Part shown: positions 13,980-27,521 of the stretch, piece by piece
How positions within the stretch are numbered: position 1 is the first letter of the stretch
How the letters are laid out: each line of letters starts with the position of its first letter
Notes under the pieces: model-generated
The model's database searches: none
Seen by the model: only the letters and a program-made list of their open reading frames with translations
What the model was told of the DNA's origin: nothing
Source: Geobacter metallireducens GS-15
Lineage (GTDB): Bacteria; Desulfobacterota; Desulfuromonadia; Geobacterales; Geobacteraceae
Length of the DNA stretch: 32,000 nt
Assembly: GCF_000012925.1 (NCBI RefSeq)
Contig: NC_007517.1
Span: 3,300,001-3,332,000, forward strand
Reading direction: 5' to 3'
Translations under genes and position numbers: made by a program

Positions 13980-14033
13980 CTTGTAATGGTCAAGACGGCA
14001 CGCATCGTTATTCACATACCCAGGGAGAATGCC

Positions 14034-14273
14034 ATGAAAACCTCAGCGAGAGCACTCTTAGCACTTCTTGCAGCATCCGGTACAGCCCTTGCGGCAAGCG
14101 GTGCCGAATCCGAGGCCAACGGCTTCCTGGTGACGCTCTTCCTCGCGTTTGGTGCCCTGGTCATAGCTTTCCAACTGGCCCCCGGCCTGATCCTGTTCGG
14201 CTCCATGATGAAAGGGCTTTTCTCCAGGCCGGCCGACGAAACCGTCATGGGCGACTCCGGCAACGAACGGTAG
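14034..14273 (+). CDS. Small (79 aa) signal-peptide plus single-TM protein, copy 2
   Basis: Internal ATG of ORF 13986..14273, chosen because AGGGAGA sits 5 nt upstream and it aligns with the starts of the paralogs. MKTSARALLALLAASGTALA-ASGAESE, then a helix, then APGLILFGSMMKGLFS. Confidence 0.8.
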   Translation: MKTSARALLALLAASGTALAASGAESEANGFLVTLFLAFGALVIAFQLAPGLILFGSMMKGLFSRPADETVMGDSGNER

Positions 14274-14304
14274 GTCTGGCGATTCCGACGGAGAGAGGAC
14301 AGCC

Positions 14305-14697
14305 ATGTTAGGACTTCTCATCGCAGACAACGATACTGTTGCTCGCAAGGAACTGGCGGATCTTTTCATCGAAGCAGGCTACAACGTTACCGTGACCAAC
14401 TCAGCGGCCAACGCCCTCTATGGGATACTCAAAAAAACCGCGCAGGTGGTCCTTATCGGGAGCGAATTCGACAATTTCAAGGCCGGCGATCTGATACCAC
14501 TCCTCAAGCAATGCGATCGGAACGTTACGATTATCCTCGTATCCGATGAGGACTCCCTCCCGGTCATGCGTAAGCTTCGCAAGGATGGGATATTCTACCA
14601 CGCACTGAGACCGGTCAAACCGGAGGACAAAGAAGAAATCCGCCAGGCCGTGCGATGCGCCTTCGAAAACCTTCTCAGCGCACGGCCGGCAAGATAA
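14305..14697 (+). CDS. Stand-alone receiver-fold protein lacking the phospho-acceptor Asp (pseudo-receiver)
   Basis: 130 aa with a GGAGAGAGGA SD. Hand alignment to CheY: the acidic pocket is partly kept (D8, D10), the phospho-Asp position is Gly52 (VVLIGSEF), the Thr position is Ser80 and the Lys position is Arg102 (ALRP). Confidence 0.75.
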   Translation: MLGLLIADNDTVARKELADLFIEAGYNVTVTNSAANALYGILKKTAQVVLIGSEFDNFKAGDLIPLLKQCDRNVTIILVSDEDSLPVMRKLRKDGIFYHALRPVKPEDKEEIRQAVRCAFENLLSARPAR

Positions 14698-14746
14698 CGC
14701 TTTTGGTTAACCAACCACGGAATCAAAGGGAAAAAAGGAGGACACC

Positions 14747-14977
14747 ATGAAACGCTCATTGGCACAAACAATCGCAGTTTGGCTCGGCATGGCGGTTCCG
14801 GCGCTGGCAGCATCAGGAGCGCGGGAAGACAACAGCGGCATCTTCGTCTGGATATTCCTCGGATTTTGCGCCCTTATCGTCGTCGCCCAACTTCTTCCGG
14901 CACTGCTCATGATGCTCGGCTTCGCCAAGGGGCTCAAGAAGGAACAGCCCATGGCCAAAGAGTCTGCGCACCACTAA
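14747..14977 (+). CDS. Small (76 aa) signal-peptide plus single-TM protein, copy 3 (more diverged)
   Basis: AGGAGG SD 6 nt upstream. MKRSLAQTIAVWLGMAVPALA-ASGARED, then a helix (IFVWIFLGFCALIVVAQLLPALLMMLGF), then AKGLKK. Confidence 0.8.
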   Translation: MKRSLAQTIAVWLGMAVPALAASGAREDNSGIFVWIFLGFCALIVVAQLLPALLMMLGFAKGLKKEQPMAKESAHH

Positions 14978-15041
14978 ATGAATGCCGCACCGCGTCACGA
15001 GAAACCAACGTATTCACCGCACAGGAAAAGGAGGCGACGTA

Positions 15042-16094
15042 ATGACAACCCTACGATCAGCAACTCTCGTGCTATCGATTCTCCTGGTCTTCCCGATGGT
15101 GGCCCTTGCCGCCGCAGCTACCGAAGACGGATGCATCGGTTGCCACGGCGACAAGAATATCAGCGGCAAGAGCGGGTCCCATCTCTTCATCGACCCGGGC
15201 CAGTACAAGAAAACCAGCCATTCGATCATCGGCTGCACCTCTTGCCATGAATCGGTGACATCCAATCACCCGAATGACGGCATCAGGCCGTCGCGGGCCA
15301 CCTGCAAGGAATGCCACAGCCCGGTCCACCAGGAGTATGCCGCGAGTCTCCACGCCAATAACGCGGCGTGTGCCGACTGCCACAATCCCCATGCGGTGAA
15401 GCCGCCGGCGATGACGTCGGCCCGGGACATGAACGCCATGTGCGCCAAATGCCACGAAACCGCCAAGATGGTCAATGTTCACGCCAAATGGCTTCCGCAG
15501 GCAGACCTCCACATCGACGCCCTCCCCTGCATCACCTGCCACACCGGTTCGCAAAATTACGTCATAACCATGTACATCGAGAAACGGCTGGGGACAAAGG
15601 AGCACAGCGACTTCAAGGTGGCCAGCTTTGACGAGCTCACCCAGCTCGTGCCGGGCGACAAGGACGTGAAAGCCCTTATCGACACCAATGGCGACAACTT
15701 CATCTCCCTGGCTGAGCTTCGGTCCTTCAACCGCAATTCGAAGCATGACGACATGAGACTCTGGGGAATGATGACCCCCGAAAAGGTAACCCACAGCTAC
15801 CAGATTCTGGACAACCGCTGGGACTGCACCTTCTGCCATGCCTCCGGCCCCAGGGCCATGCAGACGAGCTTCGTCGCCTTCCCGGAAAAGGGAGGCACCT
15901 ACACCCGCGTGGCCGTCGAGAAGGGAGCCGTCCTCGACGTCCTCTACGGGACTCCCGACTTCTACATGATGGGCTCCACCCGCAGCACGGCGCTCTCCAT
16001 CGTCGGCGGACTCATCGTCCTCGGCGGCATGGGGTTTGCCGGAGTGCACGGGACACTAAGATTCCTCACCAGAAAAAATAGAAAGGAGCACTAA
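15042..16094 (+). CDS. cbcA: Heptahaem c-type cytochrome with C-terminal membrane anchor (CbcA-like)
   Basis: ATG at 15042 (AAGGAGG SD) rather than the track start at 14982. Signal peptide; seven CxxCH motifs (CIGCH, CTSCH, CKECH, CADCH, CAKCH, CITCH, CTFCH); C-terminal [21 protein letters not shown]. The stop lies 2 nt before the cytochrome b start. The symbol rests on recalled synteny. Confidence 0.8.
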
Positions 16095-16096
16095 TC

Positions 16097-16771
16097 ATGA
16101 GCGCCCATAACGAGCAAGCATTGCATACAGAGCATGCGGAACACGCTGAGTATATCTACCTTACCCCAATGCCGGTCAGAATCTGGCACTGGATCAACGC
16201 CCTCGGCATCGTTACCCTCTGTGTCACCGGGCTCCAGATCAGGTTCCCCGAATACGTGAACATCTTCGGGACCTACAAAGCCGCCATCAGGCTCCACAAC
16301 ACCGCCGGCATCACCGTTTCCATCTTCTACGCAATCTGGTTCGCGTACTACCTGATCGTGAAGGGGAATCTCTTCAAGCTCTACGTCCCCAACACCTATG
16401 ACATAAAAATGGGAATTTTCCGGCAGGTGCTTTACTACTTCTACTACTTCTTCAAGGGGGGTCCGAGTCCGCACCACGCCACTCCTGACGACAAATTCAA
16501 CCCGATGCAGAAGGTGGCTTACATGGGGCTGATGCTCGTACTGCTCCCCCTGGTCATCCTGACCGGCATTCTCATCCTCAACGTTGCCCCCCTCAGAGAA
16601 ATGATCATGCTGCTGGGAGGCCTCAAAATTCTCGTCAGCGCCCATTTCCTGATCGCCTGCTGCTTCTGCGCCTTCCTCTTCGTCCATATCTACCTGGCAA
16701 CCATGGGGCACACGATGCTTGCCCACTTCAAGCCCATGTGGGACGGCTGGGAAGAGGTCAAGCACCACTGA
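16097..16771 (+). CDS. cbcB: Membrane dihaem b-type cytochrome (HydC/PhsC/FdnI-like; CbcB-like)
   Basis: 224 aa with about 4 TM helices and conserved His in helices (IWHW, RLHN, SAHF, FVHIY), as in the Ni/Fe-hydrogenase-type cytochrome b family. Appears translationally coupled to the upstream cytochrome c. Confidence 0.8.
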   Translation: MSAHNEQALHTEHAEHAEYIYLTPMPVRIWHWINALGIVTLCVTGLQIRFPEYVNIFGTYKAAIRLHNTAGITVSIFYAIWFAYYLIVKGNLFKLYVPNTYDIKMGIFRQVLYYFYYFFKGGPSPHHATPDDKFNPMQKVAYMGLMLVLLPLVILTGILILNVAPLREMIMLLGGLKILVSAHFLIACCFCAFLFVHIYLATMGHTMLAHFKPMWDGWEEVKHH

Positions 16772-16791
16772 CCCGGGGAGACAGATCTCTC

Positions 16792-16826
16792 AAAGGCGAA
16801 ACGGCCTGCCGTTTCGCCTTTCTTTT
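16792..16826 (+). terminator. Strong rho-independent terminator ending the sigma-54 operon
   Basis: AAAGGCGAAACGG-CCTG-CCGTTTCGCCTTT, a perfect 13-bp stem followed by CTTTT. Confidence 0.8.
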
Positions 16827-16867
16827 GCGCCACTATCCAAACTGAATGGAAAGCAGGGTATTTAAAA

Positions 16868-16896
16868 TTGACTAATCTTGCTTCATTACCTATAAT
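16868..16896 (+). promoter_or_regulatory. Near-consensus sigma-70 promoter for the dodecahaem cytochrome
   Basis: TTGACT - 17 nt - TATAAT with an AT-rich upstream (UP-like) stretch. About 45-nt leader to the ATG at 16947, which has a GAGGAGG SD. Confidence 0.7.
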
Positions 16897-16946
16897 TCGG
16901 CCAGTTCCGGTGTATACAGTATTCAATCATTCCTGAGGAGGCTAAC

Positions 16947-17936
16947 ATGAGATTCCGCTTCACCCTTCCCCTCGTGGCCTGTACACTCGCCGTTGCCGGT
17001 CTTGCCTTCGGCATCAGCATCAAAGACGTGGTCTTCACCACGAAGGACGCTGGCAAGATCGTCTTCAGCCATAAGGTCCATATCGGCAAGAAGGGTATCG
17101 AAAACAACTGCAAGGCCTGTCACCCTGCCATCTTCGACATGAAGAAGAAGGTGACCTACACCATGGCCGACATGGAAAAGGGAAAATCATGCGGCGCCTG
17201 CCATACCGGGAAAGATGGCGTATTCCCCCTCAAGGATTGCGCCCGATGCCACGCGGTGAAGGAAATCACCTACCAGGTGAAGTCCGCGGGTCCCACCCCC
17301 TTCAGTCACAAGAAACACCTGGCCAAGTACTCAGACTGCGGCGCCTGCCATCCCAAGCTCTTCAAGGCCGGCCACAACAAGCCGGTCACCATGGCCGAAA
17401 TGGAGAAAGGGAAGTCCTGCGGCGCCTGTCATAACGGCAAGTCGGCCTTCAGCGTGAATGAATGTGCACGCTGCCACCTGGTGAAGGAAGTGGGGCTCAC
17501 CTCAAAGGAAACCGGCAAGATCATTTTCAGCCACAAACTCCATGCAGCAAAGAGGAAGTGCGGAGAATGCCATAACAAGCTCTATGAAGCGGGCCGCAAC
17601 AAGCCGGTCGGCATGGCTGCCATGGAAAAGGGGAAATCCTGCGGGGCCTGCCACAACGGCAAGGGACTCTTCGACGTGAAGCAGTGTGCCAAGTGCCACC
17701 CCGTCAAAGCTGTAAACTTCAAAGTATCGGGAGCTGGACCGGTCAAATTCAGCCACGATGTCCACCTTGCGATGTACAGTTGCAACGCCTGCCACACCAA
17801 GATCTTCAAAGCGGGCCGCAGCGCCAAGGTAGTGACCATGTTCGAAATGGAGAAGGGGAAATCGTGCGGCGCCTGCCACGACGGCAAGAAAGCCTTCAGT
17901 GTACGCGAGGACTGCGTGAAATGCCACGACATGTAG
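16947..17936 (+). CDS. Periplasmic dodecahaem cytochrome c made of four c7-type trihaem domains (GSU1996/GSU0592 family)
   Basis: 329 aa with a signal peptide and twelve CxxCH motifs in four repeats. Each repeat has the pattern ..C.ACHP.(I/L)F... M(E)KGKSCGACH.GK ....C.(R/K)CH; the MEKGKSCGACH unit recurs 4 times at spacings of about 225 to 232 nt. Confidence 0.9.
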   Translation: MRFRFTLPLVACTLAVAGLAFGISIKDVVFTTKDAGKIVFSHKVHIGKKGIENNCKACHPAIFDMKKKVTYTMADMEKGKSCGACHTGKDGVFPLKDCARCHAVKEITYQVKSAGPTPFSHKKHLAKYSDCGACHPKLFKAGHNKPVTMAEMEKGKSCGACHNGKSAFSVNECARCHLVKEVGLTSKETGKIIFSHKLHAAKRKCGECHNKLYEAGRNKPVGMAAMEKGKSCGACHNGKGLFDVKQCAKCHPVKAVNFKVSGAGPVKFSHDVHLAMYSCNACHTKIFKAGRSAKVVTMFEMEKGKSCGACHDGKKAFSVREDCVKCHDM

Positions 17937-19583: not shown

Positions 19584-19595
19584 CACATAGAACCA

Positions 19596-19690
19596 ACTCG
19601 CTAGGGGAGTTTCGACTGAGAGTCCGACGCGCTGCTACGGACAACCCTTTGAACCTGATCCGGATAATGCCGGCGTAGGGAAGCGTTCCA
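19596..19690 (+). promoter_or_regulatory. TPP (THI-box) riboswitch
   Basis: CGCU-AGGGGAG...CUGAGAG...ACCCUUUGAACCUGAUCCGGAUAAUGCCGGCGUAGGGA-AGCG carries the conserved THI-element blocks, and P1 closes (CGCU/AGCG). Sits directly upstream of thiS. Confidence 0.9.
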
Positions 19691-19712
19691 CCATGGTCTA
19701 TTCCACGACCAC

Positions 19713-19736
19713 GGGCCGCTTCTGCGGCCTTTTTTG
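19713..19736 (+). terminator. Riboswitch expression-platform terminator
   Basis: GGGCCGC-TTCT-GCGGCC followed by TTTTTTG, between the aptamer and the thiS start. Confidence 0.7.
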
Positions 19737-19791
19737 TTTACGCGACCAGATGCCGGTTTCGACGAACCGGCACCCATACTCGGAGAACACA

Positions 19792-19989
19792 ATGGAAATC
19801 ATCGTCAACGGCGAAGCACGGGCTGCCACCCCCATGTCGATGCTTGAGCTTCTTCGCTCCCTCGACATCGACCCCCGCCGGGTGGCGGTAGAACTGAACC
19901 ACGACATTCTTCCCAAGGGTGAATACGAATCCACCATCCTCAACGACGGAGACCGGATCGAGATCGTCCACTTTGTGGGCGGGGGATAA
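19792..19989 (+). CDS. thiS: Sulfur-carrier protein ThiS
   Basis: 65 aa from the internal ATG (GGAGAA SD), MEIIVNGE..., ending in the diagnostic ..HFVGGG. The longer track ORF (19693) spans the riboswitch terminator and is rejected. Confidence 0.9.
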   Translation: MEIIVNGEARAATPMSMLELLRSLDIDPRRVAVELNHDILPKGEYESTILNDGDRIEIVHFVGGG

Positions 19990-20004: not shown

Positions 20005-20779
20005 ATGTCCACTACGAACGACAAGCTGATCATCGCCGGCCGGGAATTCAGCTCCCGCCTCATGGTCGGAACCGGCAAATACGCCAGTAACGAGCAGATG
20101 GTGGCGGCCCTGGAGGCCTCGGGAGCCGAGATCATCACCGTGGCGGTGCGGCGAGTCAACATCACCGACCGCTCCAAGGAGTCGCTCCTGGACTTCATCG
20201 ACACCAGGAAATACACGCTTCTTCCCAATACCGCCGGCTGCTACACGGCCGACGACGCGGTCCGCACCTGCCGACTCGCCCGGGAAGCGGGGATGAGCGA
20301 CATGGTTAAACTGGAGGTTCTCGGCAACGAGACGACCCTCTACCCCGACAACGAGGAGCTCCTCAAGGCGGCCAAGATCCTCGTCAAGGACGGGTTCACA
20401 GTCCTTCCCTATACGAGCGACGACCCCATCATCTGCAAGAAGCTGGAGGACATCGGCTGTGCCGCAGTCATGCCGCTTGGCGCACCCATCGGGAGCGGCC
20501 TCGGCATCCGCAACCCTTACACCATCCGGATCATCATGGAGACGGTAAAGGTGCCGGTCATCGTTGACGCCGGCGTGGGAACGGCCTCTGACGCGGCCAT
20601 TGCCATGGAACTGGGGGTTGACGGCGTCCTCATGAACACCGGCATCGCCGGCGCCCAGAATCCCATCGCCATGGCCGAGGCCATGAACCTGGCGGTGCGG
20701 GCCGGGCGGCTCGCCTACCGGGCGGGGCGCATCCCGAAAAAGCTCTACGCCACCGCATCGAGCCCCATCGAGGGGATGA

Positions 20780-20787
<8 letters not shown>
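20005..20787 (+). CDS. thiG: Thiazole synthase ThiG
   Basis: 260 aa with typical ThiG sequence ([39 protein letters not shown]). Confidence 0.9.
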
Positions 20788-21421
<634 letters not shown>

Positions 21422-21424
21422 CCA

Positions 21425-22384
21425 ATGCCCGATTTGCTCATCAACCCCGATCTCCGCTTCAATTCGTACGGCACGTACCTGCGCCGCCGCTTCGGCTGCC
21501 GCGTGAGCAAGGTGAACGTGGATGGCGGATTCACCTGCCCCAATCGCGACGGCACTCGGGGGACAGGGGGGTGCATCTACTGCGACAATGCCTCCTTCTC
21601 GCCGGGGGGCACCGTGGCCGAAATACCGATCGAGATTCAGATGGCCGAGGGGATGGCCTATCACCGGCGCCGCCTCGGGAGCGAGAAATTCATCGTCTAC
21701 TTTCAGAAGTTCACCAACACCTACGCCCCGGTGGAGCGACTCCGGGACCTCTACGCCCGGGCACTGGCCCATCCGGACGTAATCGGCATCTCCGTCGGCA
21801 CCCGCCCCGATTCCCTGTCGGACGAGGCCTTGGACCTTCTGGCCGATCTGGCGAAACGTCACTACGTCTGTATCGAGCTGGGCCTCCAGTCCATGGACGA
21901 CAAAATCCTCCAACAGATTGGCCGTGGCCACACCCTGACCGAATACCTGGAGGCGGTTGCACGGATCGAGGGACGGGGGATCGAGCTCTGCACCCACCTG
22001 ATCTACGGCTTCCCCGGCGAGACCCGCGACGGGTTCCTGCGAACCGCCGACATGATGGCGGGGCTTCCCGTGAACTCGGTGAAGATCCACCAACTCCACG
22101 CGGTGAAGGGGACGCGGCTGGCGGAATTGTACCACCAGGGCGACTTCGTTCCCATCACCCACCAGGAGTACGTGGCCACCGCCTGCGACTTCCTGGAGAT
22201 CCTGCCGCCGCGCATCGCCATCCAGCGACTCTACGGCTCGGCCCCCCTCACCATCCGGGTTGCTCCCACTTGGAATCTGAAGAACAACCAGATGTGGTTT
22301 TCGATCGTGAACGAGCTGAAACGCCGCGGCACCTGGCAGGGATGCCGACTTACCGACTCATGCCTCAAGGCGGGTAACTTGTAG
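21425..22384 (+). CDS. Radical SAM protein, TIGR01212 (YhcC-like) family
   Basis: 319 aa. The N-terminal VDGGFTCPNRDGTRGTGGCIYCDN cluster motif is characteristic of TIGR01212 as I recall it. Starts 3 nt after the thiE stop. Confidence 0.75.
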   Translation: MPDLLINPDLRFNSYGTYLRRRFGCRVSKVNVDGGFTCPNRDGTRGTGGCIYCDNASFSPGGTVAEIPIEIQMAEGMAYHRRRLGSEKFIVYFQKFTNTYAPVERLRDLYARALAHPDVIGISVGTRPDSLSDEALDLLADLAKRHYVCIELGLQSMDDKILQQIGRGHTLTEYLEAVARIEGRGIELCTHLIYGFPGETRDGFLRTADMMAGLPVNSVKIHQLHAVKGTRLAELYHQGDFVPITHQEYVATACDFLEILPPRIAIQRLYGSAPLTIRVAPTWNLKNNQMWFSIVNELKRRGTWQGCRLTDSCLKAGNL

Positions 22385-22410
22385 GGCGGGTCTCAAACCC
22401 GCCCTTTTTT
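22384..22410 (+). terminator. Rho-independent terminator ending the thi/radical-SAM transcript
   Basis: GGGCGGGT-CTCAA-ACCCGCCC followed by TTTTTT, overlapping the TAG stop. Confidence 0.8.
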
Positions 22411-22423
22411 CAGGAGGAACATC

Positions 22424-23080
22424 ATGACGTTTGCCACCCTGGCAGGAAGCGCCACGGAATACCCCATCGGCAAGATCCTCTGCATTGGCCGCAACTATGC
22501 GGAACACATCAAGGAACTGGGGAACGAAACCCCGGATGCGCCGGTCATTTTCACCAAACCCGCCACGTCGGTCATCGGTGATGGCGACGCCATTGTGATT
22601 CCCCCTTACTCCAGAGACTGCCACCACGAAGCGGAACTGGCGGTCCTCATCGGGACAGCGGGAAAAGATATCCCCGTTGAACGCGCCCTGGAACACGTGG
22701 CCGGCTACGGTGTCGCCATCGACCTGACGCTACGGGACGTGCAGGCCGAGCTCAAGAAGAAAGGGCTCCCCTGGGACATCGCCAAGGGGTTCGACACCGC
22801 CTGCCCCCTCTCTCCTTTTGTGCCTGCCGACCGGGTCGCCGATCCGCAAGACCTGCGGATTATCCTGACCGTCAACGGCGAAACGCGCCAGGACGGCTCA
22901 ACCTCCCTCATGATCCACACGGTCCGCGAGATCATCAGCCATATGTCGGGGATATTCACCCTGGAACCGGGGGACGTGATCCTCACCGGAACCCCCGCCG
23001 GCGTCAGCCCCATTGTTTCGGGAGATCGTCTCGTGGCTGAGATACCGGGTGTTGCCCGGCTCCAGGTCTCCGTTAAATAA
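22424..23080 (+). CDS. Fumarylacetoacetate hydrolase (FAH) family protein
   Basis: 218 aa with GRNYAEHI, HHEAEL, KGFDT and LTGTPAGV motifs. AGGAGGA SD. Confidence 0.85.
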   Translation: MTFATLAGSATEYPIGKILCIGRNYAEHIKELGNETPDAPVIFTKPATSVIGDGDAIVIPPYSRDCHHEAELAVLIGTAGKDIPVERALEHVAGYGVAIDLTLRDVQAELKKKGLPWDIAKGFDTACPLSPFVPADRVADPQDLRIILTVNGETRQDGSTSLMIHTVREIISHMSGIFTLEPGDVILTGTPAGVSPIVSGDRLVAEIPGVARLQVSVK

Positions 23081-23168
23081 TTTAAATACTCAAATTATTG
23101 ATTTTATTTTCCGCACCGGGTTATTCTGGCCGAAATCGGTATTGTCAGCAAATTACAGGAGGTGGGCA

Positions 23169-23309
23169 ATGGAAACCCAGAAAACATGCCCGGAGTGCCA
23201 GGGGACGATGTTCCTTCTTCCCGGCTGAGGGACCCTCTTCTGGCGGTGCCAGAAGTGCGGAAAGAAGATGCCGTTCTCGGATAAGGAACCGGCAGGATGT
23301 TGCGGATGA
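23169..23309 (+). CDS. Candidate 46-codon zinc-ribbon mini-protein with an in-frame TGA at 23226..23228 (possible selenocysteine; alternatively a pseudogene)
   Basis: AGGAGG SD 6 nt before the ATG. METQKTCPECQGTMFLLPG-TGA-GTLFWRCQKCGKKMPFSDKEPAGCCG-TGA. The two CxxC pairs of a 4-Cys ribbon lie on opposite sides of the TGA in the same frame. A strong terminator follows the second stop. Confidence 0.4.
23237..23255 (+). other. SECIS-like hairpin downstream of the in-frame TGA
   Basis: CTTCTGGC-GGT-GCCAGAAG, a perfect 8-bp stem with a GGU loop. The stem starts 9 nt after the TGA, and the loop lies about 19 nt from the U of UGA. Confidence 0.35.
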
Positions 23310-23313
23310 GCGG

Positions 23314-23347
23314 AAGGGGATGGAATCCATCCCCTTTCTGATTTTTT
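23314..23347 (+). terminator. Rho-independent terminator after the mini-ORF
   Basis: AAGGGGATGGA-A-TCCATCCCCTT palindrome (an effective stem of at least 8 bp), followed by TCTGATTTTTT. Confidence 0.75.
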
Positions 23348-23482
23348 GGAGCCACCATTTCGATTTCAGACCTTGTCGCCTCTCTCCCCCGGATGGTAAA
23401 ATCGGCGCGGCCATTCTCACGCGATCCCGGATTCCGCTGTGCTGCCGGGAAGCGGTTATCCTAGCGAATCGAACACATGCTC

Positions 23483-23590: not shown

Positions 23591-25285
23591 ATGACCAAAA
23601 ACCTGCGCCTCGGCTCAAAACTGATCCGCTCCTCGCTCCTTGCGGGCTTCGTCATTGCCCTGGTGGGCATCATCTGCGCCTATAATGCCGGCGGCACCCC
23701 CGCGACCCAGGGATACGCCCGGCTAACCCTGGGCATCTCCCTCATCAATGCGCTTCTTTTTCTCTTTGTCCTCTGGATGTTCACTGCCAGAAAAATGGTC
23801 GTCCGTGTCGGCAAATTGGCCGGTGCCATGGATCGTGGCGCCGAGGGCGATCTGACAATATCTGTACGGGATGATACCGAGGACGAACTGGGACTGCTGA
23901 CTACCAACTTCAACGCCATGCTCCAGCACCTGGCCGCGACAGTCACCAAGGTGAAGTCATCGGTGACAGAACTGCGTACCATTGCTGCAACGGTACGGGA
24001 TGCGGCCGACCGGGGCGTTGCCACCGCGGAGATACAGGCCGAGGCGGTCCAGGGGACCACAGACGGCATCCATGCCATCGACCGGTCGGTCACTGACGTG
24101 GCCCTGTCCGTGGGGCAGCTTTCCCGCACCGCCATGGAGAACTCCTCTTCCATCCTCCAGATGTCGGCAAGCATCGAGGAAGTGGCCGACCACGTGGAAT
24201 CCCTGGCCAATGCCGTTGAAGAGGTGAGCTCTTCCATCATCCAGATGGCGACTGCCGAGAAGGAGATAGGCTCCAACGCCGCCACCCTCATGAACGATGC
24301 CATGCGTACGGCGTCGCTGGTTGCCGAGCTTGACACCTCCATCAAGCAGATCGAGAAGAGCGCCGTGGAGACCGCGGCAATCTCCGAGGAAGTGCTGAGG
24401 GATGCCGAGCAGGGGCGCGAGGCTGTGGAGAGCACCATCTCCGGCATCGACGAGATCCGTCGTTCCTCACGCTCCGTGGGTGAAACCATCGAAACCCTGT
24501 CACAGCGGGCGGGCCACATCGGCACGATCATTTCGGTCATCAACGACATCGCGGAGCAGACCAAGCTTCTGGCCCTCAACGCCTCCATCATCGCGGCCCA
24601 GGCAGGGGAGCACGGCAAGGGATTCGCGGTGGTTGCCAACGAGATCAAGGAACTTGCCAAGCGGACCACCAGCTCTACCGGAGAGATCGGCACCATTATC
24701 ATGGGGCTGCGGGAAGAGAGCGAGCGCGCGGTTGCGGCCAACAAGCATGCGGAACTGCGGATCACTGAAGGGGAGAAACTTTCGTACCGTTCGGGCGAGG
24801 CTCTCGACAAGATCGTCGACGGCGTCAAAATGGCTGCGGGGCAGGTGAATGACATCGCCCGCACCACCGTGGAGCAGGCCCAGAGCAGCGAGCACATGCG
24901 GAACGCCGTGGAGCGGGTGGCGGGAATGGTGGAGCAGATCGCCCGGGCCACCGAAGAGCAGACCTACGGCACAGGGCTCATCATGGATGCCGTAGCCCGT
25001 ATGAAGAGCGTCACGTCTCAGGTGCGGCAGTCCAGCCAGGAGCAGCGCAACGCGAGCACCCTCATCGTCAGGTCCAGCGAGGGGATCACCGGGATGATCG
25101 CCACGATCCGCCAGGCCTGCCAGGTCCAGACCCAGAGCACCGAAAAGATTGTCCAGGCGGTGGACAACATGGCGCGGACATCCGAGGGGAATGTGGAGAC
25201 CACCCGGGTCATGGAAAATGCCGTCAACGGCCTCACCCGCCAGATCGACGAACTGAACGAGGCAATGACCGGGTTCCGGGTTTAG
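23591..25285 (+). CDS. Methyl-accepting chemotaxis protein with minimal periplasmic loop (2 TM, HAMP, MA domain)
   Basis: 564 aa with a GAAGGAGA SD. Two TM helices separated by about 10 residues, HAMP ([13 protein letters not shown]) and the conserved hairpin tip [37 protein letters not shown]. Confidence 0.9.
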
Positions 25286-25294
25286 GGCTTGCTA

Positions 25295-27385
25295 TCAGTC
25301 GTCGGCCCGGTAGCCGATCCTGACCGCTCCCCAGTGTTTCCCGCCGACTGTTATGGGCGTTGACAGGTCGTTCATGACCTCCCCCGTGTCCCGCAGATAG
25401 GTCTGGAGCAGAAAGCTCTGGGTATGGGTGGCGCAACGGATGCCGGTCCGGTCGTTGAAGATCCGCTTGGTGCGGTTGTGGTCCTTGTCCACGGCGACGT
25501 CGCCGGTCAGGGGGCGGGAATAGCGCAGGTTGTGGGAGGGGCAGTACCCCTCGCGATCGACACAGATGGCATAGTACACCCCACTGTCCCGGCCCAGGAT
25601 CTCCTCCTGAACCGGCGAGACGAGTTCGTCAAAGAACCGGTCGAAGGGGGTACGGTACTTCTGGGGAGTGGTGTTCGGAATCGGCGTGTAATCGGTGCTG
25701 AAGAGGGCATCGATGGTGATCTTCCGGTCCTCCAGGGCCTTCTCTATGACCGCCGTCGCCCGGTCCCGCAGCTCCGCGGCATACCCCTTGACGGCATCAT
25801 GGTAGCACCCCACGCTGAACCGGCCCACGGTCCCGTAGATTTTCTCGGCTGTTTCCGACAACTCGCGGAAGATGCGGGCCGTCTCCTCCATCTGGCCGTT
25901 CACCGCCCCTGCCGTGGCCGACACCTGGCCGATCTTCTCCGTGATCTCGACGGTCGTGGCACTCTGCTCCTCAGTGGCCGTGGCAATCTGGCTGATCATG
26001 TCCGTTGAATCGGTCGCCAACCGCAGGATCCCCTCCAGTTGCTGGCGGGCATGCCCCGCCTTCTCGACCCCTTCCTCAACCCTCGTTTTCCCCTCGCCAA
26101 TGGATGTCACCACCGTCCCGATCTCTTCCTGGATGCTCCGGACAATGGCGGCGATCTGTCTTGTGGACGTGGCGGTGCGATTTGACAGGGTCTTCACTTC
26201 GTTGGCCACCACCGCAAAGCCCCGCCCCGCATCGCCGGCCCGGGCAGCCTCGATGGCCGCGTTGAGGGCCAGGAGATTGGTCTGGTCGGCGATATCCTCG
26301 ATAATTCCCACGATCTCGCCGATCTGCCCCGACGAAGTCTCCAGCTTCCCCATGGCTCCCAGGGTGCCGAGGACGCTGGTCCGGATCTGGTCGATGCTCA
26401 GGGAGGTCTCCTCCACGGTCTCCATCCCCACTTTTGCAGCCTGATCCACGTTAATGGAGAGCTGCGCCGCCCGCTGGGTGGTGGCTGCCACATCGTTCAG
26501 GGTAGCCGACATCTCCTCCGACGCCACGGCCACCGAGGTGGAAAGGTCCTTCTGTTCCGCCGTAGAGGCGACGAGCCCTTCGGTCCCCTTGACGGTGCGG
26601 CAGGCCGATATGGCGATGTGCCCCGCCTGGCTGTAGAGGGATGTCACAATCTCCCGCAGCTTGGCGATCAGCATGTTGACCCCCTCGGCAAGCTCTCCGA
26701 GCTCGTCGCCGGTCCGGACTGGCATCTGTGAGGTCAGATCCCCCTCGCCGTGGGCGATGACCTGGATCCTGTCGGACAGCTCACGGATGTTCCGCACGAT
26801 GGTCTGACGGAAGAAGAGGTACAAGGTACCAAGCATGATCAGGAAAAAGACAAAGCCGGTTGCAGCCAGGGCTATGGTAAGGTTCCGCGCGCTGACATAC
26901 CCATCCTGAAGCGAGGTGGTGAGAAGAATCGCACCGGTGTACCGGGCTCCCTTCTCGTGGCAGGTGGTGCAGCGCTCCTCGTTCACCAGGGGGACGGCAA
27001 AGCTCAGGACATGCTTCCCGTCATCCAGGGTATGGCGCAGTTCCCGGGCACGGCCTGCCGCAATGGCTTCCGCAACCACCGGGTCAGCAGCCGCGCCCTT
27101 GTCCCCCCACGGCTTTGCGGCGGGACCGAACACCTTGAGGTCGAGCACCTGCCCCTTCCCTTTCACCCGTGCGATATATCGGTTTATCACCGCCATGTCG
27201 CCCGACATCATGTTTTCAGCGATTTCCTGGGAGATGAGGGTTGAGAGGCCGCGGGTATTGGCAGCCTGAAGTTTCATCAGGGCGGTGTATTCAAGCCAGA
27301 TGGCGGTTACACCAAGGATGGCGAATCCCACGCAAAGGGTTGCTCCAATAATCCCCAGCACCTTGAACTCGAGCCTGTTACGCAT
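25295..27385 (-). CDS. Methyl-accepting chemotaxis protein with periplasmic haem-c sensor and an extra C-terminal domain
   Basis: Start moved to the internal ATG at 27385 (GGAGAGAGG SD; [11 protein letters not shown]..), giving 696 aa. Periplasmic CTTCH (26957..26971), HAMP ([13 protein letters not shown]) and MA tip [38 protein letters not shown] further domain of about 170 aa follows the MA domain (25298..25810). Confidence 0.9.
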
Positions 27386-27521
27386 TATGACACCTCTCTC
27401 CGATAACATGACCGCTAGTATCTTATCGGTACCGAGAGGCAATCCTTTAATCGATTTCAGAAACGTGTTTGATTATTAATTAGTTTAGACAGGATTACGA
27501 AGTGTTACGGGCAGGCTCAAC

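Follow-up and report, generated by a model that had tools for sequence, protein, structure and literature searches.

Probable recoding of an in-frame UGA as selenocysteine in an unannotated zinc-ribbon mini-gene of Geobacter metallireducens

Is a 46-codon reading frame of Geobacter metallireducens GS-15 that is split by an in-frame TGA a damaged gene, a short leader followed by a regulatory hairpin, or a single gene in which the TGA is decoded? The question arises at positions 23169..23309 of a 32,000-nucleotide stretch of DNA (the window; contig NC_007517.1 of assembly GCF_000012925.1, positions 3,300,001 to 3,332,000 of the forward strand), where the frame reads METQKTCPECQGTMFLLPG, TGA (23226-23228), GTLFWRCQKCGKKMPFSDKEPAGCCG and a second TGA (23307-23309). 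An initial annotation, made from the sequence alone, had proposed that the first TGA is translated, possibly as selenocysteine (Sec), to give one 46-codon zinc-ribbon product, and had named a recent nonsense mutation as the alternative. Comparison with homologues indicates that this is very probably an unannotated 46-codon gene of G. metallireducens whose internal TGA is read as selenocysteine, and SelB-dependent insertion of Sec at codon 20 is considered highly likely. The single product is supported by the presence of TGA in all 62 distinct TGA-form sequences, by a frozen hairpin, by a homologue with cysteine at the same position, by selection on the downstream frame, and by a host that uses Sec. 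The Shine-Dalgarno sequence six nucleotides from its ATG, the split frame of 46 codons, the perfect 8-bp hairpin with its GGU loop about 19 nt from the UGA, the terminal vicinal cysteines and the terminator were all confirmed at the positions first assigned to them:

23157-23162, + strand: Shine-Dalgarno sequence AGGAGG, 6 nt on the 5' side of the ATG at 23169
23169..23309, + strand: coding sequence of the predicted 46-residue selenoprotein METQKTCPECQGTMFLLPG-U-GTLFWRCQKCGKKMPFSDKEPAGCCG, from frame translation and homologues
23187..23198, + strand: first zinc knuckle CPEC (Cys7, Cys10), its cysteines invariant in homologues
23226..23228, + strand: in-frame UGA, codon 20, predicted selenocysteine, TGA in 62 of 62 distinct TGA-form sequences
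23237..23255, + strand: predicted selenocysteine insertion sequence (SECIS) hairpin, 8-bp stem and GGU apical loop (23245-23247), encoding L-F-W-R-C-Q-K
23247..23258, + strand: second zinc knuckle CQKC (Cys27, Cys30), with Cys27 inside the SECIS hairpin
23298..23303, + strand: C-terminal vicinal cysteine pair (Cys44, Cys45), a pair common to 55 of 57 complete Sec forms
23307..23309, + strand: true stop codon TGA, varying among TAG, TAA and TGA across homologues
23312..23348, + strand: intrinsic terminator with a 12-bp stem (23312-23338), a 3-nt loop and the T-rich tail TGATTTTTTG (23339-23348)

The proteins encoded on either side of the gene are identical to G. metallireducens ABB33155.1/WP_004512873.1, of the fumarylacetoacetate-hydrolase (FAH) family, and ABB33156.1/WP_004512874.1, a methyl-accepting chemotaxis protein. 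Because the accessions ABB33155.1 and ABB33156.1 are consecutive, the mini-gene between them is unannotated in the GenBank record, and the gap is also left empty by automatic gene calls on Logan contigs that bear the same flanking genes. G. metallireducens has been listed with eight selenoproteins, SelD and FdhA among them (PMC1794560), and therefore decodes UGA as selenocysteine; the present 46-codon gene is absent from that list. The Sec machinery that the proposal presupposes in the host is thus accounted for by the literature, the organism being fixed by the exact protein matches. Within the window there is no tRNA, and no sel gene or other gene of selenium metabolism was found among the open reading frames (ORFs) scanned.

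When one genome per species was scanned with the FAH protein encoded upstream, 25 Geobacterales loci were obtained, and in four of these (L001, L003, L005 and L017) the mini-gene lies directly on the 3' side of the FAH gene, with TGA at the same codon in each and with GGAGG or GGGGG at an equal distance from the start. A metagenome scan with a five-peptide alignment added 80 loci, and the total came to 84 homologous mini-genes, 76 of which have TGA at codon 20. Among these 84, the distinct N-terminal coding segments number 62 with TGA and 6 with a sense codon. There are 59 distinct Sec-containing protein variants, the most distant being 46% identical to the window protein, and complete forms are 45-50 amino acids long except for one of 44 (frameshift-corrected) and one of 56. 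In L005 (metagenome-assembled genome JACRPV010000091, around 1800-1850), a 1-nt correction in a GGGG run restores the conserved ...PGCCGSE end, and the frameshift is probably an assembly error, not a real one. Two Sec forms have a single tail cysteine: L147 (Ga0209317_1000030), which reads GGHFWRCQNC, has the basal C-G pair broken and gives a 56-aa product, and L159 (Ga0062383_10000193), which reads U-NGFFW.

On a single sequence, a TGA that splits a domain resembles a lesion and the hairpin is unexceptional in comparison with shuffles, as would be expected of a pseudogene, that is, a small zinc-ribbon gene with a recent nonsense mutation or a sequencing error. The homologues leave almost no room for such an explanation. 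The same-codon TGA in 62 distinct sequences, drawn from independent genomes and metagenomes with identity down to 46%, excludes the recent nonsense mutation, and the downstream frame, the cysteine pair, the stop codon and the terminator are all conserved.

A tblastn comparison of the peptide, with U changed to C, against plasmids gave chance matches only (E of at least 1). Word-indexed protein searches with the window peptide or with the Desulfosarcina protein DW (discussed below) returned no match, a result that is unreliable for very short proteins. Exact look-up located 50-aa homologues with Val or Ala that share seven 5-residue words with the window peptide in the same collection, and for this reason the negative result is not to be trusted at such lengths; a word-indexed search seeded with one 50-aa homologue found only 5 proteins. 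HMMER, run with a profile of the non-Sec forms against 1.84 billion representatives, retrieved only two representatives of the family, both of them Val forms, the remainder being generic zinc ribbons; Sec forms would have escaped that search, either by falling within the same 50% identity clusters or through never having been called as genes.

The pattern of codon usage around the UGA is the principal evidence for recoding. Codon 20 is TGA in 62 of the 62 distinct TGA-form sequences, never TAG or TAA, and the terminal stop codon varies (TAG 22, TAA 22, TGA 16). Codons 23-29, which make up the hairpin, read CTC TTC TGG CGG TGC CAG AAG, and minority synonymous codons account for 1 of 368 there versus 265 of 773 in thirteen control codons. 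The 19-nt hairpin is identical in 60 of the 62 TGA forms and in none of the 6 non-TGA forms, and its GGU loop is invariant across all 62 TGA forms. Cys27, inside the stem, is encoded by TGC in every one of the 62, and Cys30, just outside it, by TGC in 57 and TGT in 5; the ratio of TGC to TGT is 37:25 at Cys7 and 41:21 at Cys10. Part of the metagenome sample was retrieved by the peptide pattern FWRCQKC, and the search patterns were degenerate back-translations. FWRCQKC is retained in 30 of the 31 Sec forms that were retrievable by the N-terminal pattern alone, and the hairpin is identical in all five sequences that were found through synteny, without reference to the mini-gene. Because the patterns are degenerate and the sequences found by synteny share the identical hairpin, the freeze on synonymous change is no artefact of retrieval.

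The same observations bear on SelB-independent readthrough, in which a near-cognate tRNA (Trp, Cys or Arg) would decode the UGA at low frequency and the hairpin would merely slow the ribosome or release factor 2. Such a process would be compatible with the Val, Ala or Cys tolerated at this site in relatives, and computation cannot identify the inserted residue. It is nonetheless regarded as very unlikely, since the codon is constantly UGA to the exclusion of UAG and UAA, the GGU loop does not vary and disappears when the TGA does, the position and shape of the hairpin fit the SelB-binding consensus in a host that decodes Sec, and, if any residue sufficed, a stable sense codon would be the simpler solution. 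The mechanism of recoding is very probably the ordinary bacterial one.

Whether the sequence past the UGA is translated can be judged from its own variation. Gly31 is encoded by GGA (26), GGC (25), GGG (8) or GGT (2), and the tail cysteines by TGC (85) or TGT (38); because Gly31 uses four codons and the tail cysteines use both of theirs, the frame past the UGA is under selection at the protein level. Indels come in whole codons, as seen from lengths of 45-50 amino acids in 59 of 60 distinct coding sequences. The sense-codon homologues are continuous ORFs that are called as ordinary 50-aa proteins, and 59 of 82 loci have a hairpin followed by a T-run past the second stop codon, the stem sequences being unrelated. 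A 19-codon leader peptide with a regulatory hairpin (an attenuator), the sequence past the TGA being untranslated, would account for a short ORF whose stop closely precedes a strongly conserved hairpin, but it is highly improbable in view of the protein-level selection downstream, which extends to the use of both codons at Cys30 and to the whole-codon indels. Moreover, the two CxxC pairs together make one zinc ribbon, the homologues with a sense codon are uninterrupted, and the hairpin is without a T-run, the real terminator being located past the second stop.

If the TGA is recoded, the hairpin should resemble a bacterial SECIS element. Its perfect 8-bp stem is formed by CTTCTGGC (23237-23244) and GCCAGAAG (23248-23255), which pair around the loop GGT (23245-23247); it starts at the ninth nucleotide past the TGA, and the loop is located 16 nt past the last base of the UGA and 19 nt from its U. 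The bacterial SECIS (bSECIS) model (PMC13188914) calls for a loop of 3-9 nt, an upper stem of 4-16 bp, a spacing of 16-37 nt between UGA and loop, a G at one of the two opening positions of the loop, mostly with G or U after it, and an energy of -7.5 kcal/mol or lower. The window hairpin agrees with this model in every respect, with a 3-nt apical loop, an 8-bp upper stem, a spacing of 16 nt (23229-23244), a loop sequence of GGU, and a folding energy of -10.9 kcal/mol for the 19 nt. A 71-nt stretch folds no better than its dinucleotide shuffles (z = -0.26); since the hairpin is unremarkable on a single sequence, the case is built on comparison of homologues. Rfam, searched at E <= 10, gave microRNA-level noise and no SECIS family, and RNAalifold suggested only a weak 2-bp lower extension with one-sided changes. 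In common with the SECIS of the Escherichia coli fdhF type and the bSECIS consensus of Zhang and Gladyshev, the hairpin is a stem-loop just 3' of the UGA within the coding sequence; it also shares with the consensus a G-G/U motif that opens a small apical loop, and its spacing and stability are within the model. Unlike the fdhF-type element, it is a triloop closed by C-G, with no bulged U evident. The SaoC SECIS described by Haft and Gwadz, with a 7-bp stem and a GGU loop, is very similar to it.

What happens to the hairpin when codon 20 is a sense codon can be seen in a sister clade (MxSQKNCPECQGTMVLT...), in which this codon is GTN (Val) or GCA (Ala). The 19-nt hairpin is intact in none of the 6 sequences of the Val/Ala clade (CTT, AGA/AGG, TGT and AAA changes), and the loop is disrupted to GAU in 3 of the 6 Val/Ala forms. 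A homologue with cysteine aligned to the Sec was found as a single sequence (P0021/L163), on a 1.26-kb contig; it reads ...APG-C-GGLFWQCQKCG with TGC at codon 20, and in its hairpin region CGG is changed to CAA (giving the loop AAU) and AAG to AAA. Orthologs with TGA and with Cys, both of which the initial annotation had suggested seeking, therefore exist (62 distinct TGA segments and the one Cys form), and the compensatory stem changes it hoped to see in them do not, as the stem never varies. A terminal cysteine pair (CC, CxC or similar, 0-4 residues from the C-terminus) is present in 55 of the 57 complete Sec forms and in none of the Val, Ala or Cys forms, so that in the sequences compared Sec is coupled to both the hairpin and the C-terminal cysteine pair. 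The members of the sister clade are L083, L091, L093, L106, L107, L110, L138 and L163, with the proteins P0002, P0010 and P0020-P0022; the 50-aa proteins are inconsistently named in public sources ('zf-TFIIB domain', 'ribosomal protein L37AE/L43A', 'TiaS'). In L138 the zinc ligand Cys27 has also been lost (TGC to CGC).

Several considerations weigh against decoding of the UGA as selenocysteine or temper it. The mini-gene was not detected downstream of the FAH ortholog in 21 of the 25 Geobacterales loci (2 of them with almost no downstream sequence), and diverged CxxC...CxxC mini-ORFs sought on the 3' side of these 21 genes were not found; the mini-gene is therefore dispensable or patchy. A deep-learning scan for selenoproteins reported nothing new in G. 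sulfurreducens. Val or Ala predominates over Cys in the sense-codon relatives, an unusual pattern for a catalytic selenocysteine. The non-TGA forms all come from a single clade, so the hairpin and the cysteine pair may have been lost in one or few events. For the sequences retrieved with FWRCQKC, the amino acid invariance of the hairpin is built in, the pattern being at the peptide level; its synonymous invariance is not. The 16-nt spacing sits at the extreme lower edge of the bSECIS model, and the invariance of the stem means that there are no compensatory base changes. The evidence at the RNA level thus consists of suppressed synonymous change and of decay after loss of the TGA, and any evidence for selenium incorporation or expression is indirect.

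On this evidence, the gene is genuine and independently signalled, with a transcript perhaps shared with the upstream FAH-family gene. Translation would start at the ATG at 23169 and the ribosome would reach the UGA at 23226, where the hairpin at 23237-23255, with its 8-bp stem and its GGU loop 16 nt downstream, would be bound by SelB with GTP and Sec-tRNA(Sec). Selenocysteine would be inserted in place of termination, translation would run on to the stop codon at 23307, and transcription would end at the terminator just past it. The tryptic peptide that spans the predicted Sec is TCPECQGTMFLLPG-U-GTLFWR. The product is predicted to be a 46-residue zinc ribbon whose four knuckle cysteines hold one Zn2+, with the Sec exposed at the tip of a beta-hairpin (PG-U-GG) and a disordered tail that ends in two adjacent cysteines. 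Since the 19 nt that form the SECIS hairpin also code for the third zinc ligand and the second beta-strand, they would be under constraint as RNA and as protein-coding sequence at once.

What kind of protein would this be? The stand-alone 46-residue window protein has the spacing CxxC-x9-U-x6-CxxCG. Pfam and NCBIfam gave near-threshold zinc-ribbon matches only, among them PF13453 Zn_ribbon_TFIIB at 16.7-21.8 bits versus a cut-off of 22. For a Val-form homologue, an AlphaFold2 model based on an alignment of 5 sequences (pLDDT 72) has strands at residues 13-19, 22-27 and 33-35, places residue 20 in the turn at the beta-hairpin tip between the first two of these strands, and has a tail that is disordered from residue 39. 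The top Foldseek matches in the PDB are all zinc ribbons (RPC10/Rpb9, topoisomerase I, eL43, ZifS and a Nudix N-terminal domain), typically with an rmsd of 1.1-2.5 A over 30-37 aligned columns and with every E-value at least 0.07. The predicted fold is accordingly that of a zinc ribbon.

With six cysteines and one Sec in 46 residues and a zinc ribbon that is only predicted, from a Val-form model of modest pLDDT and a small alignment, the product might instead be a real selenoprotein in which all seven chalcogen ligands bind a metallothionein-like cluster or form structural disulfides. This is thought unlikely, because CxxC-x16-CxxC fits zinc-ribbon profiles and zinc ribbons supply the best matches in Pfam, NCBIfam and Foldseek alike. 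In addition, the Val and Ala forms retain the four knuckle cysteines and lose the Sec and the tail pair, which points to two separable modules. For a zinc-ribbon selenoprotein, the selenol and the C-terminal dithiol may act together, either in a selenenylsulfide/disulfide redox relay or as a soft metal or metalloid site with Se,S,S ligands, neither of which is judged to reach an even chance. A more specific proposal, tentative and rather doubtful, is a minimal selenium redox or metal(loid)-handling module in which a Zn(Cys)4 scaffold, a selenol tip and a mobile dithiol form a Se,S,S centre, maybe in company with the upstream FAH enzyme; this centre might work as a selenenylsulfide relay or offer trigonal coordination to Hg, As, Cu or selenium itself.

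The immediate neighbourhood on the 5' side comprises the FAH-family gene and, further upstream, thiamine biosynthesis genes:

19693-19989: thiS-like ORF, behind a TPP riboswitch
20005-20787: thiG, behind the same riboswitch
20780-21421: thiE, behind the same riboswitch
22424..23080, + strand: FAH-family gene, 218 aa (NF007967, 236 bits versus a cut-off of 201)
23052..23081, + strand: weak sigma-70-like promoter match TTGCCC-18-AATAAT (9/12 in a consensus scan), not in itself evidence of function

The FAH gene is immediately on the 5' side of the mini-gene and on the same strand in 67 loci, and the genes downstream differ; it is thus a conserved syntenic neighbour that may be co-transcribed with the mini-gene. 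The TPP riboswitch (RF00059, 68.9 bits) is at 19593-19698 and is followed by a terminator-like hairpin at 19713-19730. A TIGR01212 MnmL/YtqA radical SAM gene for tRNA modification (21425-22405 region) begins 4 nt past thiE and ends in a strong terminator-like site at 22383-22405, from which it appears to ride on the thiamine operon; this site lies between the thi and radical SAM genes and the FAH gene. Control of the mini-gene by the TPP riboswitch was rejected owing to the intervening terminator-like sites at 19713-19730 and 22383-22405. The possibility that the mini-gene encodes a modified-peptide precursor or 'selenobacteriocin' acted on by the nearby radical SAM enzyme was also rejected: the enzyme is of the TIGR01212 kind and not a SPASM maturase, the terminator-like site separates its gene from the FAH gene, and no NCBIfam match to the TIGR04081 selenobacteriocin (SGUG, a Geobacter radical SAM target peptide) was found at E <= 1.

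On the 3' side, two convergent methyl-accepting chemotaxis protein genes (23591-27442; 564 aa on the + strand and 715 aa on the - strand) separate the mini-gene from a gene for pyruvate phosphate dikinase, and glyS is also on this side. The dikinase gene is about 1 kb on the 3' side of the mini-gene in 19 other loci, which suggests that the chemoreceptor pair was inserted in the G. metallireducens lineage. Elsewhere in the window, positions 14982-17936 encode a multihaem cytochrome c (370 aa, with paired CXXCH), a membrane protein of the cytochrome b561 type (224 aa) and a protein with four cytochrome c7 repeats (329 aa), a cluster that resembles a Cbc-type quinol oxidoreductase with a periplasmic polymer cytochrome. 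Between a sigma-54 activator gene and this cytochrome cluster, at 13986-14977, paralogous predicted membrane proteins of 95 and 76 aa (core ...FL.F.AL.(I/V)..QL.P.L...) flank a 130-aa receiver-like ORF.

The mini-gene would add one more selenoprotein to the 8 published for G. metallireducens, a model metal reducer, and it was missed both by GenBank and by automatic gene calls; the cut-off of the NCBIfam model NF041197, and gene callers in general, overlook this Geobacteraceae clade. The family also offers an unusually clean natural experiment on SECIS evolution, in which 19 nt are frozen synonymously in the presence of UGA and drift once the codon is a sense codon. The peptide is small enough to be synthesized chemically, which would make selenol chemistry on the tip of a zinc ribbon directly accessible.

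Which known proteins does the predicted selenoprotein resemble? The C-terminal zinc ribbons of TFIIS, Rpb9 and RPC10 have the same predicted fold, with functional residues at the tip of the beta-hairpin between the knuckles, but they belong to eukaryotic and archaeal RNA polymerase subunits and, unlike the window protein, have an acidic tip without Sec. The FmdB family (TIGR02605, UxxU) likewise consists of small zinc-ribbon proteins with selenocysteine; its Sec replaces a metal-ligand cysteine of the knuckle, whereas in the window protein the knuckles are all Cys and the Sec is at the hairpin tip, and the match to TIGR02605, at 11.1-14.2 bits, falls short of the cut-off of 31.3. The flexible C-terminal cysteine pair combined with a selenol recalls the tails of thioredoxin reductases (GCUG; SCCS in insects), and a vicinal cysteine pair on a flexible C-terminus with a selenol is also found in the CC/CU-COOH selenoproteins (SaoC, KCU-star), in both cases by analogy and not by homology. 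The roles suggested for CC and CU motifs are soft-metal handling or that of a mobile redox centre. In the window protein, unlike these tails, the Sec and the cysteine pair are about 24 residues apart and on different structural elements.

The closest resemblance is to NF041197, 'dual CXXC motif small (seleno)protein', which is the top match of the window protein (E = 9.9e-6, profile positions 1-31 of 53). A 2026 review gives this model for both OS_HP3, from the Olavius delta-1 symbiont (Zhang and Gladyshev 2007), and the Desulfosarcina 'hypothetical protein DW' (deep-Sep 2025), the sequence of the latter being MDELKCIFCGKVAEIRGRUSNARVVCRSCGMETTLNDYRDQIEAWIDQVWKMLA. The initial annotation, whose proposal of an unannotated small selenoprotein is supported, made no mention of the fact that the CxxC-U-CxxC architecture had already been catalogued. 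The score of the window protein is 25.6 bits if U is replaced by C and 16.7 bits if it is replaced by X, both below the cut-off of 40; since X in place of C costs 9 bits, the model expects Cys or Sec in the Sec column. A match at E <= 0.01 is found in 56 of the 57 Geobacteraceae members, the best at 1.7e-6, which is weaker than the 2.1e-11 that corresponds to 43.8 bits and so leaves all 57 below the cut-off, whereas true DW proteins exceed it (43.8 and 45.3 bits). Both kinds are small stand-alone proteins of about 50 aa with an identical CxxC-x9-U-x6-CxxCG framework, with the Sec between the knuckles and the SECIS within the second half of the coding sequence of the ribbon, and hhalign aligns them without gaps between the five Cys/Sec columns, although the profile-profile comparison is weak (E = 0.079). 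They differ in the tail, which is helical in DW (DYRxQIExW) and is a short, disordered, variable linker ending in CC or CxC in the window clade, in the context of the Sec (RGR-U in DW, PG-U-GG in the window clade) and in the host lineage (Desulfobacterales and Geobacteraceae, respectively); the window protein does not match profile positions 32-53, which represent the helical tail, or the R/G-x-U context. Common descent with NF041197 is plausible, and the window gene is treated here as a sister or variant of that kind more than as a proven member, one that would carry the dual CxxC design of small selenoproteins beyond the marine Desulfobacterales and into Geobacteraceae of fresh water and soil, with another kind of tail.

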